Of a DNA stretch of 64,000 nt, positions 43,648-53,585 are shown one piece after another. The notes beneath the pieces are model-generated. The model worked only from the letters and a program-made list of their open reading frames with translations. It ran no database searches and was not told the DNA's origin. Source of the stretch: an uncultured Bacilli bacterium (GTDB taxonomy: Bacteria > Bacillota_I > Bacilli_A > RF39 > UBA660); contig CAKOKD010000003.1 of NCBI GenBank assembly GCA_934090935.1, positions 92,604-156,603 on the forward strand. Direction: 5' to 3'. The position numbers and the translations under genes were made by a program. Every line of letters starts with the position of its first letter. Positions within the stretch are counted from its first letter, which is position 1.

Positions 43648-44391
43648 TTAGCTATGGATATAAGTAATTCCATTGTAAAGTAAATCATCGCCTTTTTTGC
43701 TAAACTTTTTATCACCTATCGTTATACTTTCGTCATCTTCTAAAAAGGTATCACTTGTAACGTTTGATGATGTGACTATATAAGCATTTTGAAATTCACT
43801 TGATGCGTTTATAAGAATAATTTCATCGGCACTTGTATAATATTTAAATTCGGAATCATCGATTATTAATTCTTCATCGTTCTTTAGTCCATTTTTAGTA
43901 AAATAATAGTCTTTTAACTCATTATCATATAATATGCTTATTTTATCACTCATTATATTATATGTTCCATAAGTTGAACTTATTAGTGAGAATGTTTGAA
44001 TATCTATCGAAACAACTAAATTATTCGTATTTGCAGGGAATAAAAACATTATTTCTTTATCATTTTTTAACTTTCTAACTCGATTTATATTGTTGATATA
44101 TGTTTTAACACTATCATCGTTTTTTAAAGTTGTTGTTGAAGTTGATGTTATCTCATCCATTTTTTTATTTATATATTTTACACCATAATATGTTAAAGAT
44201 ATAGCTACTATCAAGCATAATATTATTATCAATATTTTTAGGAAAGGATTTTTCTTTTTAACCTTTATTCGATTGTTGACATCATTCACTTTAGATTCAT
44301 CAATACTTTTATTGGCATTATTTGTTGCAACAATAATATTTTCTCTTTCTCTTGCTATAAATGACTCTTGTTCGTTATTCATGATTTTCAC
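43648..44391 (-). CDS. hypothetical single-pass membrane protein
   Basis: TM FLKILIIILCLIVAISLTYYGV. 247 aa. Confidence 0.4.
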   Translation of the reverse strand: MKIMNNEQESFIARERENIIVATNNANKSIDESKVNDVNNRIKVKKKNPFLKILIIILCLIVAISLTYYGVKYINKKMDEITSTSTTTLKNDDSVKTYINNINRVRKLKNDKEIMFLFPANTNNLVVSIDIQTFSLISSTYGTYNIMSDKISILYDNELKDYYFTKNGLKNDEELIIDDSEFKYYTSADEIILINASSEFQNAYIVTSSNVTSDTFLEDDESITIGDKKFSKKGDDLLYNGITYIHS

Positions 44392-45784
44392 TCATCTGTT
44401 CTTTATTGTTAATTACTTGTCTATTTATTCCATTAGTGTTGATTGTTTTTATTACTTTTACTTGAGGAGATGGAGTACTATTAATTAAGTTTTCTCTTTC
44501 ATTTACATTATGACTGTTTATAACTTTTGTTGGAATTACTACTCTTCTTCCCACTCCAATACTGTTTTCACCATTGATACTAGCTTGAACACTTGTATTA
44601 CGAATCAGATTTTCTCTTTTCTCATCAGCTATTTCTTTTACCACTTCATCTTTTACTTCGCCTTTTTTCTTTCTTGTAAAGAAAGCATATAAACCAAATG
44701 ATAATGAAGTCATAGAAAACAATATTATAAATATCAAACTTGTATAGTTTCTTTTTATGTTTATCGTATATTTTGTCTCTGAAAGATCTCCATAAGAAGA
44801 TGTAACAACTATTGTATTTTTTCCTTTGCTTAAAACTTGAAGACCAGCGTTTTTAACAACTACATCTTCACTTTTAGGAAGTGCCATTATATAGATTTCT
44901 TTTACATTATAAGGAACTGTTATGCTATAGCTTAATGTTTCTGGATTAAAAGTAAAATCATAGTTAACAACTTTTAAAGATGATAATTTAGTGTCTATGT
45001 CTTTATTTCCTTCTGGTTTTGTTATTACTACATTGATTGTAGCTGTTTGATCAAATTCATTTTTTAATACCAAATCAACGACGTTTTTACCGTCTGAAAG
45101 AGTTCTCTTTCCAAGACCAATGATTGTTATACCAGCTCCAGCAGTCGCGTTTATATTAACCTCTGTAGTATCTTGATTTACAGTTACATAGTATATTTCG
45201 TTTTCATAAGTTACATTAAAATCATCCACTGTTAAACTTGTTAATTTTAAAGGAGCAATATATTGAGTAGTCGTGCTTGTTACTCTTTCAGTTGCTCTTG
45301 TTTGGGTAGCTGTTGTTATCTTTTTTGTTGTCGTTGTTGTTGTTACATGATCTAGAATCTTAAAGCTTCCTGTTGCATTGTTGATACCGCTTATATTTTC
45401 AAAGTTAGAATCACTTGCTTCAATTCCTGATAAGGTGATAGATGCAGATCCAACGGATGATGTTTTTAAAGTTATTGTTCCGATAGAAAATGTACCTGTT
45501 TTCATCGTATCAGTATATAAATCGATTACTCCATTGCTTCCCTCACCTAACCAGCCTGAAGCGGTTTGAAAGCTTTCAAAAGTTGCATTAGTTACATTTA
45601 TCTTACCATGGAAACTTGAAATGTCTGTTCCACTAGATGTTCCTGTTAATGTACATTTAGTGATAGCACCTACTTCAACATTGTTACACTTTACCGATAC
45701 TCTAAATGTTCCAGCTGCAAATACTTTGAATGGTATAAATAGAGAAAGTGCAACTATAATCAATACAAAACTTTTTCCTTTCAT
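44375..45784 (-). CDS. membrane-anchored cohesin-like + cadherin-like beta-sandwich protein (scaffoldin-like anchor)
   Basis: Signal peptide. N-terminal module FRVSVKCNNVEVGAITKCTLTG...VIDLYTDTMKTGTFSIGTITLK has cohesin-like spacing. Thr-rich linker. LSSLKVVNYDFTFNPETLSYSITVPYNVKEIYI...GDLSETKYTINIKR (cadherin-like/CHB domain). C-terminal TM plus basic tail. Confidence 0.5.
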   Translation of the reverse strand: MKGKSFVLIIVALSLFIPFKVFAAGTFRVSVKCNNVEVGAITKCTLTGTSSGTDISSFHGKINVTNATFESFQTASGWLGEGSNGVIDLYTDTMKTGTFSIGTITLKTSSVGSASITLSGIEASDSNFENISGINNATGSFKILDHVTTTTTTKKITTATQTRATERVTSTTTQYIAPLKLTSLTVDDFNVTYENEIYYVTVNQDTTEVNINATAGAGITIIGLGKRTLSDGKNVVDLVLKNEFDQTATINVVITKPEGNKDIDTKLSSLKVVNYDFTFNPETLSYSITVPYNVKEIYIMALPKSEDVVVKNAGLQVLSKGKNTIVVTSSYGDLSETKYTINIKRNYTSLIFIILFSMTSLSFGLYAFFTRKKKGEVKDEVVKEIADEKRENLIRNTSVQASINGENSIGVGRRVVIPTKVINSHNVNERENLINSTPSPQVKVIKTINTNGINRQVINNKEQMSENHE

Positions 45785-46224
45785 AAACTTTTCCTCCTTT
45801 TAATTAACAAAATAACTATAAATAATATAACAATGGTAACTATGGGTATAAATATATAACAATATGTATGATTATTTTCTTTATTATATATTACTACTTC
45901 TTGAAAAGATTCATCTCCATAGCTTAAATATGTTTCTTTTAACTTGCCTTTATAGGTTATCTTTCCTATCTCAAACCTTCCTTCTTTAAACGAATCTGTA
46001 TAGAGAAGGATTGAATTAGAATCATAATCTCCTTGAAAATCATTTGATGGTTCAAAATTTATAACGTCTCCTTTTATATGATATTCAATTGCTGATACTA
46101 AGAAGTTTGAATTAGCATACATCGTACATGTGTGTTCACTTTTTTTATCCTCGCATTCATAGTCAATATTCTCTGCAAGAACAAGCGTTGGAAGAAGTGA
46201 TAACATAACAATTATCATTTTCAT
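45781..46224 (-). CDS. small membrane-anchored protein with a mini cohesin-like module
   Basis: Signal peptide. LLYTDSFKEGRFEIGKITYKGK parallels LYTDTMKTGTFSIGTITLK of the neighbour. C-terminal TM plus RRKSL. Confidence 0.4.
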   Translation of the reverse strand: MKMIIVMLSLLPTLVLAENIDYECEDKKSEHTCTMYANSNFLVSAIEYHIKGDVINFEPSNDFQGDYDSNSILLYTDSFKEGRFEIGKITYKGKLKETYLSYGDESFQEVVIYNKENNHTYCYIFIPIVTIVILFIVILLIKRRKSL

Positions 46225-49200
46225 TATATACCACTTATCCTATTCCTTACAAAACTATATAGTTTTGATACATCAGCAACTTTTATTTCATTTTGTTTTC
46301 TTATATGAGCCGATGCTAAACTGTATTTATCAAGTTCAGTTTTGCCTCTTACATAATTGTATAACATGGATACATCAAAGACATTGATTTTGCCATCCTT
46401 GTTTAAGTCTCCAATTATTACAATTGCATATGTTTCTTCACCGTTTTGTAAATACATACCTGTACCGATTTCATTTACTTTTGATGTGATATCTGAATGA
46501 TTTTTATCAAGAATCTTATAGTCAGTTACAACTCCATTTAAATTCGATAAGAACTCAGATTTAGTTAAACTTTTTTTATTCATGCTTAAGACATTTATTA
46601 TTGTTTCATCATAATTTATGCTATAAACATTTGATGTTAATCTTTGTCTAGCAGTTATTTTTATTTTTTTAACAACGTCATTATGAGTGAATACAAGTTC
46701 ACATGAACCTATACCATTTACTTTAATTCTTCCATCATCAAGCACTTTAACAATCGCTTCATCAGTTGAAGTAACAGTTACTGAATTATCAGTATGATTA
46801 CTTGGATTTAAAACGTAATTATAAGGTTTGAATTCCCCATAAAATAAAGTTAAATTATCATCAACTTCAACATTATCGATAATCACCTTTAATTCATCAA
46901 CTTTGATATATTTTTTTACAGGTGAACTTATACGCGTATATGGTAAACCATTTATACATAGATAGAAATCAAGATTTCCTTCTTTTAAAGCATTAGTTTT
47001 AAAATCTATTTTTTTGAATGTATTTCCATATAAATCTTCAGAAGTATATGATACTTTTATTTCATCAACTAAAGTAAGTGAATCGAATACTTTAATCGAA
47101 TAAACATCAGTATCCACATCATCATAAGTAGTCATAAAATAATATGTTCCCTTTGCTCCATCGATATCATATATCGAGTTATCTCCATAGTTTTTAACCG
47201 GTTCAACTTTAGAATATCCGCTTAAACTAACATTATAGTAGTTTTTCTCGATTATGAATGAAAGCATATTAGAAGCGGAATAAGATCCATCACTTTCATA
47301 GTAATATAGTTGTACACGATACTCCCCAACTCTTGCTTTAAATGGAATGATATTGATATAGTATTTTCCTTCATCCGCAATTTTATTTTCTAGATTAAAG
47401 GCATTGGTAACATTATCCTCTTTGATATCACTATAAAGAATATTATCTTCAGCGTCATAGATTCTTGCTTTGATGTTATTTAAATCATTTCCTGTTAAGA
47501 CAGTACTTACATCAAATGTATATCCCATATTTTCTTGGTCTGCATAAACAATAGAATTTAATGAAATCATATTTGATAGAATTATGCTCTTATATGAAGA
47601 ATTCATTTCATAATCAACATTTTTTGTAATGCTCTTCAGTGGATTTTCTTGATAAGTTAAACTTATGACATAATTATCAGCTTGGATAGAAGAATTCTTA
47701 TCATATTTTATTCTAATTTGATTGTCATATTTCTCAACTGTGAATTTATCAGTAACATCAACATTTTTAGATGAAGTTATCTTAACTAACATGTCAGATG
47801 CAAATAGCTCATAATCACTTTTTATAAATATTGTGAAAACACTGTCGACATTATTATGAAGTCTTCCATCCATTGCATCAGTCATAATCTCTGTTTTTTC
47901 TATTTCAAAATCTTTTACATAATTACCTATGTCAAATGTTTGAGTTTTTTCTACTCTATATCCATCCATGTCATAGTATGTTACTAATCGATAAGTTCCT
48001 GGTTCTACCGAGTTTTTAGCATATTCAACATTTAAAATAAATGATGTTAAAGAAGTACTTGAATTAGTTGAATAGATTTTAAAGTTCGAAGTAACATCAT
48101 TATCCTCAGCATCAAATATTTTAGAGTTTTTACTGAATACATGCTTGTTAGAATCTCTGTCGATATGAGATGAACTTATTTGAATATCAGGAATGTCTAC
48201 TGTGCTTATATCATACTCTATTTTTCCACCATTTTCTGCATTTGGATAAAGTGGATTTGGATCAGTTTTATATGAATCAAAATAGAAATTGAAATAAGTT
48301 TTATTTACTGTAAACGTTAAGGAATCTTTTATCGTTTTTTTGCTATTTGAATAGCTAACTTCAACCATATATTTTCCTGATTCAATTTGTTTTAGAGTTG
48401 GATCGTAATTTATCTCTAGATTATGACTTGCTACAAATTCACTTCTGTTGAAATTGAAATATGAAGTGTAGTCTCTTAAACCATCCTCAGATAAAACTTT
48501 AATTTGAATATCTTCATTACTATAATCTATTCCATATATACGAACAGGTATATATATTTTACCAACCTTGTTTGTAAACAATCCATCAGATACTTGATTA
48601 TTCGATATTTTAGAGTATATAAGTGTATTATCTTTATCAAAAATGATATCTGCATATTCATCTTGAACATCAAAAGTATATGTTTTATAATCCGAACTAT
48701 TATAATATAAAGTTAATGCATATTTTCCTTCTTCTAATTTTAAATTCGAATCCAGATTATCTTTAAGAGTTAACTTCAATTTTTGATTATCTTTAGTTGT
48801 ATTTAAATCGTTAAAACGATTATTATAGTTTGTTCCACTTGTTGGATCACATACACCATTTATGCAGTCTTTATTGATAACCCAAGATGCATTTTTTTCA
48901 TATGGAGATGAAAGAGTTACATCGATTGTTACATCATTTAAATTATTGTAGAATCCTGGTACATCAATGTAATTTCCATTATCATTATATTTGGATGTGA
49001 TAACTACGTCGCTTATCTTCCACTCGAATAGAGACTTCAATGTCTTTCCGTAATCGGTTAATTCATATTCAACATTTCTTGTAGCATAGGAAGCAAGAAG
49101 TGTATAAGTTCCTTTCATATCAACCGTATTTTGAATAAGCTCAATAATCAATTTTCCTTTGAAATCAGGACCTGTACTTAAATCCCAGTTATCTCTTATC

Positions 49201-52200
49201 TTAAACATACGTGTGCTTGCATCTACACTTGAAACATCAACGTATTTCTTTTCATTTGTATCATAATAATAGATAAAGTACTCAATCTTATCTAGCTCAT
49301 TTTCAGCGATATTTTTTGTTGAAATGTCATAATATATGAACATTCCATCATCATTTACCTTTGGAGTTCTATTAGTTAACTCTATAAGATATTCTTCTTT
49401 AGTTACATTAAAAGTCAAATTAGAAGTTATAAGTTCATTATCACCCTCTTGATATGATAAACCTAAGACATATTCACCTACTTCAGCGGCATTTTTTACA
49501 TTTGTTAACAAGAATTGATAATAAGTTAATTCACTATCTTGTTGATGATAGACATAATCGTATCTAAATATAGTTTCTCCAGCTATGTTTTTGAATGCTT
49601 TATTTTGTTTATCTAAAATAAAGTTTTCATCAGTACTTCCAGGGATTTTTCTTGTGATACTTGGAACTATATTCTCCGGTGAAGATACAAAATGAAGATT
49701 CGCGTTTATTGATGCGTTTTTTTCAACATTTCTAGCGAAAGCAAGAGGTGTTTCATCAGTTAGTTCAATGTCATAATATTTTCCAGAGATAGTAAATTCT
49801 TTTTCACATTGTCCAGTTACACCATTATTTTTATATTCAACGACTAATTTATAATCACCAGCATTTACTCTTCCTGGTATAGTTTGTAAGTTAACTGTTC
49901 CTGATGATTCTATTGAGTCAACAGGATTAACAAATTTTGATTTTATAACAAATTTTGATGTCGCATCAACATAAGATCCTTCAACTTTTTCTAATACTTT
50001 AATATCAAATCTACTCTTTTGATTTTCATCATCCACTGAATAGATATATTTAGTTTTAATCGTAAAATCAAGATTTCCATCAACATTATAATAAACAACA
50101 TGTTTATCATTTCTCTCATTTGTTGCATCTACGTCGCTTACTTCAAGATTATATATAGGATCATTATAAGAAATGGATGTCATATGAACATTTTGAAGCC
50201 ACATCTCAGGATATAAATCTTTGCTGATTGTTGCTTCAATCGTTTCTCCAGTTATTGGATCTACACTATTTTGGTTGATATAACCTATAGCATCCATTGT
50301 TTCATATTTTGTATATACATAATATGTTCCTTTATCAACTTCAGTTTTAGGTAAAATAGTAACTGCTTTTTCAACGTTTGTTAAATCGTCGTAGTCAACT
50401 GTAATATTAAATTTGTTAGTGACTTCATTACCTTTAATTGCATCCCCATTTATGCTATATACTTTATATTCACCCATGAATGTTCCACGGATGATATTTC
50501 CTGATGCATCAAAGATAAATTTTGTTATTAAGTAGTTATAGATATCTGGATATTGTACTTTGAATGTAGTCAAAGGCATTGATTTGTTTTTTGTCTGTAA
50601 AACGTTTGATTCGTTATAGAAGTCAAAAACCACATCAACATCTGTTCCCTCAGCATTTGATTTAAATGATTTTATAACCATTTTATAATTCTTACCTGAT
50701 GGATCAGTATGATAGAAGTTGTCATCATCAGTTATAATATTGTTGTTTTGATCATACTTATAGCATTCTAAAAAGTTGTTATTTCCGCAAGTTGGAAATC
50801 TTTCATCTATTTGATATCTGCTTGCAAACTCCGCATAAGTAAGCTCATTTGTTAAAGTTTGACCTCCATTTATAGTTACATCAAAATTTACTTTTGTTGT
50901 TGCTTTATTATAACTATTTATTTTTATTTGATAAGAATCAACATCATAATATTTTAAAATGTTTTGTCCTTTTGAATCTTTCTTCAAAGCCCCAGTTTCA
51001 TCAGTTTCATATTCAACATGATGGTCAAATATTCTAGTCGAAATAGATCCTGCAGTTCTTGTATCAACTTTCTTTCCACCTTTGATCAAATATAATCCTA
51101 AATAGTATTCATATCTTTGGTTTGATGGAGGTAAAATTGAAGATGGAAGTTCATCTTCTTTTTCGGCATGTGTATCAAACATACTAGTTAAGTAGTAATC
51201 TGTGTTTTGATCATAAATTTCAAATTTAATCGATTGCTCCTCTGCATCCTCAAAAGGTAAAACTATTTTATAGACTCCCGTATATTTCTCTTTTGTATTA
51301 TCATAATCGACACTGCAAGTTATTTGACCAGTAGAATCATCAACTGGGCTATATTTACAAGTAAGAGTAAAACCATCTGCTGATGCACAAATTCCATTTT
51401 GACAAGTATCAGGGTTTTCCGCTTTAACTATATATGGACTAAAATTATCAAATTCTTCACTTCTCACTCCGTCATAAGATATCGTTTTTGTAATAATACC
51501 ACCGGATAAAGCAAATACATTTTGATTTTTAGGATCAATTGTTTTATTTTCTTCAGGAACTGCATAAATCAAATTATAGATCAAATATCCATTTGCATCA
51601 TATTCATAATTATTAACTAAGAATTGATAAGCATCTTGGTATTTTGCTTTAAAGTCAGCCACCATTAAAGTGTTGGAAGTTCCTCCTAGAGTATAAGTTA
51701 TGTTTGTACCATTATAGTTTGTGATGATTAAATCATCCGAATATTTATAAGTTATGTGTCCTTCTTCATCGCTTGTTAAAACATCAATATTAGCTGTTTC
51801 ATAAGTTTTTTTAAAATCAGCAATTGTAGTAGTTTTACCTGTTCCAGATATAATATAAGTTATATTTTGACTAGTTAGAGATGTTATCTTCATAGAATAT
51901 TTTTTATCAACAATTTGTCTTATATATCTATGAGATTCAGCATCAACATCCGTAAGCCTTATATAACGTTTACCAATCTTAAATGTAGTTTTTTGACTAT
52001 AAGTAGTTTCTTTAAAGTCAGATGATGTATGAGTTATTGTCACTTCATAAGTACCTGATTTGGGTATATTGAAAAATGATCTTTTATTAGTTATATATAT
52101 TTTATTCTTTTCTTGTGTTACATCAAATTTAGATGTAGTTACATCCTTATCGTTATATTTAATGGAGATTGATATTCCGCTTATATCACCCGAGCCTACT

Positions 52201-52811
52201 ATCTTATTGTACATTTGATCAGCAAGACCAGTTAAGTCTATTTCAAAGCGGTTTGTTTCATTTGCATATCCATGTGTTCCATTTATTATTTTAGGTTCAG
52301 TTAATTCGAAGTAATTATAGTATCCTTCAACTGTGAAAGATACACTCGTCTTAGATGAAGTAACACGGTTATTAGTTACTTGAACTTTGTATGAACCAGG
52401 TATTGGATAGCTTCCACTTCTTCTAAATCTTATAGTTAACTTATTTCCAGTTTTGCTCTTTTCATATATATTCCAGTTTCCAGTATCATCAGTATTGTTT
52501 GGATTCAAGATTTTAACCGTATAAGCACTTTCAACACTAGTGGCATTATTAACAGTCACTTCTACATATTGGATTTTATCACGATATAAAGTCGATGAAT
52601 TCATGTTGTTCATCGTTTTTACGCTTGATGTAAGGGATGCACCTACAAGCTCTTCGTTTGAATTTAAAGATGCATTAAAAAAATTACTTACTTTAGAATA
52701 ATAAGCAAACGAAAAATCATATCTATCACTTAAATTGCCTAAAAACATAAACATAAAGGCAAAAGATAAAAGCGCTAAAGTTTTAACTATATTCCCTTTC
52801 ATATCATACAC
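46224..52811 (-). CDS. giant (2195 aa) secreted multi-beta-sandwich adhesin with Big_2 domain and C-terminal dockerin-like module
   Basis: Signal peptide, dozens of Ig-like repeats. VTVTSTDEAIVKVLDDGRIKVNGIGSCELVFTHND (Big_2). C-terminal GDLNKDGKINVFDVSMLYNYVRGK (canonical Ca-binding dockerin repeat) plus a degenerate second repeat KVADVSKLYSFVRNR. Confidence 0.75.
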   Translation of the reverse strand: MYDMKGNIVKTLALLSFAFMFMFLGNLSDRYDFSFAYYSKVSNFFNASLNSNEELVGASLTSSVKTMNNMNSSTLYRDKIQYVEVTVNNATSVESAYTVKILNPNNTDDTGNWNIYEKSKTGNKLTIRFRRSGSYPIPGSYKVQVTNNRVTSSKTSVSFTVEGYYNYFELTEPKIINGTHGYANETNRFEIDLTGLADQMYNKIVGSGDISGISISIKYNDKDVTTSKFDVTQEKNKIYITNKRSFFNIPKSGTYEVTITHTSSDFKETTYSQKTTFKIGKRYIRLTDVDAESHRYIRQIVDKKYSMKITSLTSQNITYIISGTGKTTTIADFKKTYETANIDVLTSDEEGHITYKYSDDLIITNYNGTNITYTLGGTSNTLMVADFKAKYQDAYQFLVNNYEYDANGYLIYNLIYAVPEENKTIDPKNQNVFALSGGIITKTISYDGVRSEEFDNFSPYIVKAENPDTCQNGICASADGFTLTCKYSPVDDSTGQITCSVDYDNTKEKYTGVYKIVLPFEDAEEQSIKFEIYDQNTDYYLTSMFDTHAEKEDELPSSILPPSNQRYEYYLGLYLIKGGKKVDTRTAGSISTRIFDHHVEYETDETGALKKDSKGQNILKYYDVDSYQIKINSYNKATTKVNFDVTINGGQTLTNELTYAEFASRYQIDERFPTCGNNNFLECYKYDQNNNIITDDDNFYHTDPSGKNYKMVIKSFKSNAEGTDVDVVFDFYNESNVLQTKNKSMPLTTFKVQYPDIYNYLITKFIFDASGNIIRGTFMGEYKVYSINGDAIKGNEVTNKFNITVDYDDLTNVEKAVTILPKTEVDKGTYYVYTKYETMDAIGYINQNSVDPITGETIEATISKDLYPEMWLQNVHMTSISYNDPIYNLEVSDVDATNERNDKHVVYYNVDGNLDFTIKTKYIYSVDDENQKSRFDIKVLEKVEGSYVDATSKFVIKSKFVNPVDSIESSGTVNLQTIPGRVNAGDYKLVVEYKNNGVTGQCEKEFTISGKYYDIELTDETPLAFARNVEKNASINANLHFVSSPENIVPSITRKIPGSTDENFILDKQNKAFKNIAGETIFRYDYVYHQQDSELTYYQFLLTNVKNAAEVGEYVLGLSYQEGDNELITSNLTFNVTKEEYLIELTNRTPKVNDDGMFIYYDISTKNIAENELDKIEYFIYYYDTNEKKYVDVSSVDASTRMFKIRDNWDLSTGPDFKGKLIIELIQNTVDMKGTYTLLASYATRNVEYELTDYGKTLKSLFEWKISDVVITSKYNDNGNYIDVPGFYNNLNDVTIDVTLSSPYEKNASWVINKDCINGVCDPTSGTNYNNRFNDLNTTKDNQKLKLTLKDNLDSNLKLEEGKYALTLYYNSSDYKTYTFDVQDEYADIIFDKDNTLIYSKISNNQVSDGLFTNKVGKIYIPVRIYGIDYSNEDIQIKVLSEDGLRDYTSYFNFNRSEFVASHNLEINYDPTLKQIESGKYMVEVSYSNSKKTIKDSLTFTVNKTYFNFYFDSYKTDPNPLYPNAENGGKIEYDISTVDIPDIQISSSHIDRDSNKHVFSKNSKIFDAEDNDVTSNFKIYSTNSSTSLTSFILNVEYAKNSVEPGTYRLVTYYDMDGYRVEKTQTFDIGNYVKDFEIEKTEIMTDAMDGRLHNNVDSVFTIFIKSDYELFASDMLVKITSSKNVDVTDKFTVEKYDNQIRIKYDKNSSIQADNYVISLTYQENPLKSITKNVDYEMNSSYKSIILSNMISLNSIVYADQENMGYTFDVSTVLTGNDLNNIKARIYDAEDNILYSDIKEDNVTNAFNLENKIADEGKYYINIIPFKARVGEYRVQLYYYESDGSYSASNMLSFIIEKNYYNVSLSGYSKVEPVKNYGDNSIYDIDGAKGTYYFMTTYDDVDTDVYSIKVFDSLTLVDEIKVSYTSEDLYGNTFKKIDFKTNALKEGNLDFYLCINGLPYTRISSPVKKYIKVDELKVIIDNVEVDDNLTLFYGEFKPYNYVLNPSNHTDNSVTVTSTDEAIVKVLDDGRIKVNGIGSCELVFTHNDVVKKIKITARQRLTSNVYSINYDETIINVLSMNKKSLTKSEFLSNLNGVVTDYKILDKNHSDITSKVNEIGTGMYLQNGEETYAIVIIGDLNKDGKINVFDVSMLYNYVRGKTELDKYSLASAHIRKQNEIKVADVSKLYSFVRNRISGI

Positions 52812-52973
52812 ATCCTATATTAAAATTATAGCATTACAAATAATTGATGTAAACTATATTATGACAAATTTCGACATTTTAACCATTAATTAGTTTAACC
52901 AAATTTAAAAAATTTACTCGCTTTTTACTTGTGATTAATTCAATCGTATTTTATAATTAGTTTAGGTGATGAT

Positions 52974-53585
52974 ATGTATTGTAAAAATTGTAATAAACTT
53001 TTAAAAAACAATGAAAAAATATGTTCTGAATGTGGTTTTAACAATGATATCACCGATAATAAACTTATCGAAAAGAAAAAATATAAAAAGGAAAAGGATA
53101 ATTCTAAAGGAGCTATTACGATAATCGTATTTCTTTTAGTAATAACAGCTTCATTTGCTTTTATCTATACAGTAAGAGATATGAAAAAGCAAGACGAAGC
53201 CGGTATAAATGGTACATTAACAACGACTGAAGAGGTTAAATTAAAAAAATTTAAATACGATAATTTGATTTTGGAATATCCACCATCTTTTGGTGTTTCT
53301 TCAAGCGTTATATTTCTTAAAGAAAACTCTAATATCAATATCGAATTATCAAAAGTAAGTTTAGATGAATATAATAGTTTAATTGAATTAAATGATACGC
53401 TTGATAACAAAGTTGGAGAATTTTCTAGTAAAACTTTTGCTGATGAAAACGCTTATTTTAATTTAATAGCTTTAAACGATAAATATTATGTAATAAAAGT
53501 AAATTATATAAGTGATACAAACGTATATACTGAAAGTGTTCAATTACAAATATCCAATATATTAAACACATTAAAAAAGAAATGA
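52974..53585 (+). CDS. zinc-ribbon (CxxC...CxxC) single-pass membrane protein
   Basis: MYCKNCNKLLKNNEKICSECGF. TM ITIIVFLLVITASFAFIY. Confidence 0.5.
   Translation: MYCKNCNKLLKNNEKICSECGFNNDITDNKLIEKKKYKKEKDNSKGAITIIVFLLVITASFAFIYTVRDMKKQDEAGINGTLTTTEEVKLKKFKYDNLILEYPPSFGVSSSVIFLKENSNINIELSKVSLDEYNSLIELNDTLDNKVGEFSSKTFADENAYFNLIALNDKYYVIKVNYISDTNVYTESVQLQISNILNTLKKK

Follow-up and report, generated by a model that had tools for sequence, protein, structure and literature searches.

Introduction

Cohesin-dockerin pairs are used outside cellulose degradation, and the survey of Peer et al. (2009, FEMS Microbiol Lett), which used sequence profiles, reportedly found non-cellulosomal cohesin- and dockerin-like modules across the three domains. 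In Ruminococcus flavefaciens and R. champanellensis, ScaE and CttA are said to form an XDoc-CohE adhesion pair that acts as a load-bearing joint. The Clostridium perfringens cohesin-dockerin modules (2vo8, 2jh2, 2w1n, 2ozn) are likewise non-cellulosomal and come from a gut-associated member of the Bacillota, where they join soluble toxin and glycosidase enzymes (secreted glycoside hydrolases) to each other. Anchoring scaffoldins with a single cohesin and a transmembrane (TM) anchor have been described in the non-cellulolytic or starch-degrading Clostridia Ruminococcus difficilis, R. sp. HUN007, and Lachnoclostridium sp. MSJ-17 (PMC11557425; bioRxiv 10.64898/2026.02.05.704116), and there are documented cohesins that escape detection by sequence profiles but are recovered with AlphaFold (bioRxiv 10.64898/2026.02.05.704116).

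TM-anchored single cohesins and non-cellulosomal cohesin-dockerin pairs are therefore already described, and the locus presented here is a variation on them. It lies in a 64-kb stretch of DNA, analyzed whole and referred to as the window, from an uncultured human-gut Bacilli lineage, in keeping with the gut-type Bacillota host proposed in a preliminary description. Like the Clostridia scaffoldins, its two candidate anchors each carry one cohesin-fold module and a C-terminal TM helix, the modules are too divergent for Pfam or CDD and come to light only through AlphaFold, and the host is non-cellulolytic. Whereas those scaffoldins serve many dockerin enzymes spread over the genome (up to ~80 dockerins), the present locus is a compact operon in the class Bacilli whose cargo is one giant non-enzymatic protein and whose two cohesin candidates are dedicated to it. 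A stalk of cadherin-like domains, a cytoplasmic tail that is conserved, and two more conserved membrane proteins are further differences. The likeness to ScaE-CttA is that of a non-enzymatic adhesin whose C-terminal dockerin would sit on a single surface-anchored cohesin. However, ScaE is sortase-linked to peptidoglycan while the anchor here is a membrane helix, CttA carries a type III dockerin with an X-module while a plain type I-like dockerin here directly follows a beta domain, and the present cargo exceeds CttA about tenfold in size and contains no known binding module. The C. perfringens modules differ in having no membrane anchors, giant repeat cargo, or operon pairing, and the head family described below is invisible to profiles of the kind used in the 2009 survey. 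We consider it probable (about 0.68) that the locus is a self-contained, non-cellulosomal cohesin-dockerin surface-display operon.

Results

Organization of the locus

The open reading frames first reported were recovered at identical positions, with the giant, 147-aa, and 469-aa genes all on the minus strand. The locus comprises the following features.

43648..44391, minus strand: fourth operon gene, single-pass membrane protein (247 aa)
44375..45784, minus strand: large membrane-anchored protein with predicted cohesin fold (469 aa)
45781..46224, minus strand: small membrane-anchored protein with predicted cohesin fold (147 aa)
46224..52811, minus strand: giant surface protein (2195 aa as listed)
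52825..52853, minus strand: sigma-70-like promoter match, TTTACA-17-TATAAT with extended TG (consensus match only)
52974..53585, plus strand: divergent zinc-ribbon membrane protein (203 aa)

The genes overlap by 1 nt (giant/147-aa), 4 nt (147-aa/469-aa), and 17 nt (469-aa/247-aa). The promoter match, just upstream of the giant gene, agrees with the consensus at 11 of 12 positions, more than any other site in the region. On the minus strand from the promoter to 43648, no terminator-like site falls between the operon genes; the sole such site, at 51139-51158, lies within the giant open reading frame. Translation of the giant protein more likely starts at the ATG at 52802 (MKGNIVK...) than at the GTG at 52811.

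The giant protein and its C-terminal dockerin

The giant protein is built from an N-terminal signal-like segment, many divergent beta-rich repeats of ~120 aa, a Big_2-like domain, and a C-terminal dockerin.

46653..46811, minus strand: Big_2-like Ig domain (residues ~2001-2053), upstream of the dockerin
46227..46421, minus strand: predicted type I dockerin (residues ~2131-2195, the last ~65 residues)

Its earlier description as an Ig-repeat protein depends on two observations. A G-x-Y-x-[LV]-x-[LV]-x-Y motif recurs from residue 828 to 1888 with a spacing of mostly ~115-130 residues, and Pfam Big_2 gives a match below threshold (18-20.5 bits against 22.8), a cut-off that one orthologue, L008, passes at 25.0 bits. 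Orthologues span 2190-2457 aa at 29-59% identity, and an adhesin role for these proteins is presumed. A hydrophobicity scan found no stretch of TM length in the giant protein, and no LPXTG, SLH, or TM anchor is evident in it.

The claim that the protein ends in a dockerin with one canonical and one degenerate repeat was borne out. A dockerin was defined as two tandem repeats of ~22 residues, each with a 12-residue loop D-x-[DN]-x-[DN]-G-x-x-x-x-x-D and a helix. The giant C-terminus reads GDLNKDGKINVFDVSMLYNYV, followed by the second repeat AHIRKQNEIKVADVSKLYSFV. Repeat 1 contains the canonical calcium loop DLNKDGKINVFD at 46374-46409. In the degenerate loop of repeat 2, HIRKQNEIKVAD at 46272-46307, three of the four ligand positions are replaced; H, R, and Q stand at positions 1, 3, and 5, and this loop therefore probably binds no calcium. 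The helix and the Asp at position 12 are kept. The sequence thus points to a dockerin that probably binds a single calcium ion. The second loop is still canonical in the orthologue L009 (DLDGDSKVALND).

Pfam Dockerin_1 (PF00404) scores 26.6 bits on the isolated 230-aa tail, above the 22.9-bit cut-off, which four of seven orthologous tails scored alone also pass. A profile of orthologue tails (A6) matches the dockerin chain 2ccl_B with an E-value of 2.6e-10 over both repeats (profile 11-67, chain 2-58), together with 1ohz_B, 2y3n_B, 4fl4_A, and about 35 other dockerin chains. By these sequence comparisons, the giant tail is a dockerin. The two dockerin helices are more alike within one protein (0.56 identity) than between lineages (0.33-0.42), as expected of a symmetric, dual-mode dockerin. 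Most dockerin tails are basic and the small heads acidic (-3 to -22).

Two membrane-anchored proteins with cohesin-fold heads

Each downstream protein begins with a signal-like segment and has a single hydrophobic helix near its C-terminus, with basic residues after it (Kyte-Doolittle scan only, not a dedicated TM predictor), in agreement with the signal peptide and C-terminal anchor previously assigned to both; neither SLH nor LPXTG motifs were found in either protein. In the 469-aa protein the signal-like segment is followed, from N- to C-terminus, by these features.

45341-45715, minus strand: cohesin-fold module (predicted)
45251-45340, minus strand: Thr-rich linker
44750-45250, minus strand: two cadherin-like domains (the first predicted)
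44681-44737, minus strand: TM helix (residues 350-368, Kyte-Doolittle scan)
44378-44680, minus strand: conserved cytoplasmic tail of ~100 aa

The AF2 model of the large head has a pLDDT of 95.9. In a Foldseek search against the PDB, cohesins occupy the first 22 places and nearly all of the first 47, with E-values down to 1.5e-8 and a TM-score of 0.86 to 2vo8. Of the mixed cadherin-like/CHB domain once proposed for this protein, the cadherin-like part stands, since Cadherin-like PF12733 scores 26.4 bits against a cut-off of 24.2 over residues 267-345; a domain profile scan found no CHB_HEX_C domain. Alignment to the multi-repeat relative P0049 suggests a second cadherin-like copy at ~179-260. 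The cytoplasmic tail contains residues that are invariant across 17 homologues.

The 147-aa protein consists of an N-terminal signal-like segment, a minimal cohesin-like module of ~100 aa, a TM helix, and a KRRKSL tail; it has no stalk, and the module sits directly on the membrane.

45871-46173, minus strand: cohesin-like module (predicted)
45802-45858, minus strand: TM helix (residues 123-141, Kyte-Doolittle scan)

The AF2 model of this head is also confident. In Foldseek, carbohydrate-binding modules (CBMs) rank first, nothing reaches an E-value of 0.001, and the head is no closer to cohesins than to CBM2 and chitin-binding domains. It is homologous to the large head (BLASTP E 2e-7, 32% identity over ~100 residues), and a large-type profile of diverse family members, including the large module of the window and excluding the small protein, finds the 147-aa protein at E 2.6e-14. 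A shared cohesin-like module, as originally proposed, is thus upheld by the fold models and by the homology of the heads. The modeled nine-stranded beta jelly-roll superposes on solved cohesins, which dominate both structure searches, and on these models both heads have the cohesin fold, a jelly-roll that also resembles CBM2-type and other beta-sandwich modules.

Judged by sequence profiles, the heads are not cohesins. Pfam Cohesin (PF00963) gives no match to either window protein, to any of 18 orthologous modules, or to any of 130 family members. Family profiles, one of them built from 46 sequences, match PDB cohesins weakly (E 0.4-0.66), and hhalign of the family against a Pfam-positive cohesin protein found nothing. 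The preliminary description had named the lack of a cohesin HMM match as refuting its proposal; we judge this too strict, because cohesins that evade profiles are documented and the evidence from the fold is strong.

The head family extends to about 595 clusters at 50% identity, and where public names were found its members are called 'hypothetical' or 'cadherin-like'. The module almost always follows directly on the signal peptide and has two invariant Cys in representative alignments. A hydrophobic helix like those of the two window proteins occurs in 109 of 145 members and PF12733 matches 72 of 130. At least eight listed members combine the module with the same dockerin subtype in one polypeptide; most of the ~595 clusters have no dockerin of their own.

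Conservation of the locus and its neighbors

The syntenic set consists of the window and L001-L014; L015 gave only a partial match to the large protein and does not reach the upstream genes. Each syntenic locus encodes a single giant with a dockerin tail and exactly two membrane proteins with cohesin-like modules, in the conserved order giant dockerin protein, small TM cohesin-like protein, stalked TM cohesin-like protein, and the linkage holds down to ~30% identity of the giant and ~38% of the large protein. The dockerin tail is kept in every giant orthologue. In a locus from another lineage (L016), a gene for a leucine-rich repeat (LRR) protein with a dockerin is directly followed by a small TM cohesin-like gene. 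The next gene encodes cohesin-like, LRR, and dockerin modules, and a cohesin-like+TM gene lies farther along. From this gene content, the same module family is seen to pair with LRR-dockerin cargo in that lineage.

Two flanking genes are conserved as well. The 247-aa protein has a Thr-rich linker, an outer domain of ~170 aa, and a conserved cytoplasmic RERENI...VNN...KKKN motif; it has no Pfam or NCBIfam match, and orthologues occur in every syntenic locus (30-54% identity). The 203-aa protein, which always adjoins the giant gene (30-52% identity in all syntenic loci), has an N-terminal zinc ribbon with a weak Zn_Ribbon_1 match, one TM helix (residues 46-64), and an outer domain of ~130 aa.

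Discussion

Given the combination of a true dockerin with two cohesin-fold membrane proteins, the giant protein is probably attached to the cell through a cellulosome-type joint, a plug-and-socket unrelated to cellulose. The giant repeat protein would be exported by its N-terminal signal peptide, and its type I dockerin would plug into the cohesin-fold head of one or both downstream membrane proteins, thereby tethering a beta-rich rod of ~2,100 residues to the cell. The large partner would present its cohesin at the tip of a stalk, formed by the Thr-rich linker and the two cadherin-like domains, that could extend into the wall or across it. The small partner, a pared-down acidic cohesin on the membrane, may catch the basic dockerin on its exit from the translocon; alternatively, it may offer a second attachment point for the giant protein. 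We infer both the dockerin-cohesin binding and the use of one or both heads as partner. Cohesins or dockerins elsewhere in the genome, beyond the 64-kb window, could be the true partners, and other anchoring routes exist in the organism, as sortase and peptidoglycan genes are also encoded in the window.

The genes might be linked without forming a cohesin-dockerin pair. The heads would then be beta-sandwich modules of independent membrane adhesins that bind carbohydrate or host-protein ligands, while the dockerin binds a cohesin from another locus or a wall polymer, or only stabilizes the C-terminus through calcium. The missing cohesin sequence signature, the CBM2-like and chitin-binding-like matches of the small head, and the scarcity of dockerins among the family clusters all favor this view, as does PF12733, which presumably binds carbohydrate, as its Pfam description would have it. 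Against it, the order of one dockerin and two heads is strict across deep divergence, the pairing recurs with unrelated LRR cargo, module and dockerin co-occur in single chains, and cohesins dominate both structure searches; we regard it as unlikely, though a real prospect. Chance resemblance, with the tail a generic EF-hand-like calcium loop and the heads generic Ig-like sandwiches, was already disfavored and is extremely improbable. The whole 2195-aa protein does score only 20.4 bits with Dockerin_1, under the 22.9 cut-off, and a low-GC, Asn/Lys-rich composition favors D-x-N-x-D-G-like strings, but the profile match is full-length over both repeats with dockerins ranked well above EF-hand proteins, the motif occurs once in six reading frames of the 64-kb window, the tail is conserved in every orthologue, and the structure matches are specific to cohesins.

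A transmembrane assembly beyond display, in which the giant, both cohesin-fold proteins, and the zinc-ribbon and 247-aa proteins form one complex that passes signal or force through cytoplasmic tails (an adhesion sensor, or secretion and assembly helpers), appears very unlikely. Five to six membrane and surface genes are conserved together, and the invariant residues in the ~100-aa tail of the 469-aa protein, the cytoplasmic zinc ribbon of the 203-aa protein, and the cytoplasmic motif of the 247-aa protein would suit such a complex; however, Pfam and NCBIfam detect a signaling or enzymatic domain in no member, and plain structural partners would also keep neighbors conserved. An extension of the display reading, distinctly unlikely as a whole, is that the heads represent a large cohesin family missed by profiles and used for general membrane display in uncultured gut Bacilli. 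There would be two tiers here, one an acidic mini-cohesin hugging the membrane, the other a cohesin raised on a stalk whose protein has a conserved cytoplasmic tail. The two would share one dockerin by engaging both of its near-symmetric helices and, jointly with the zinc-ribbon and 247-aa proteins, would couple the giant adhesin mechanically or by signaling to the cell interior.

At least one sizeable family escapes cohesin censuses that rely on profiles, which fits the AlphaFold-based findings in Ruminococcus (bioRxiv 10.64898/2026.02.05.704116). The mini-cohesin of ~100 residues and the dockerin of ~65 residues could become a small orthogonal part for protein assembly. If the tail binds the heads, a cellulosome-type joint to a membrane protein, as opposed to sortase or SLH attachment, would be one of the ways in which uncultured gut Bacilli fix very large surface proteins, and the locus would offer a handle on the attachment of these little-studied gut bacteria to particles, mucus, or other cells.

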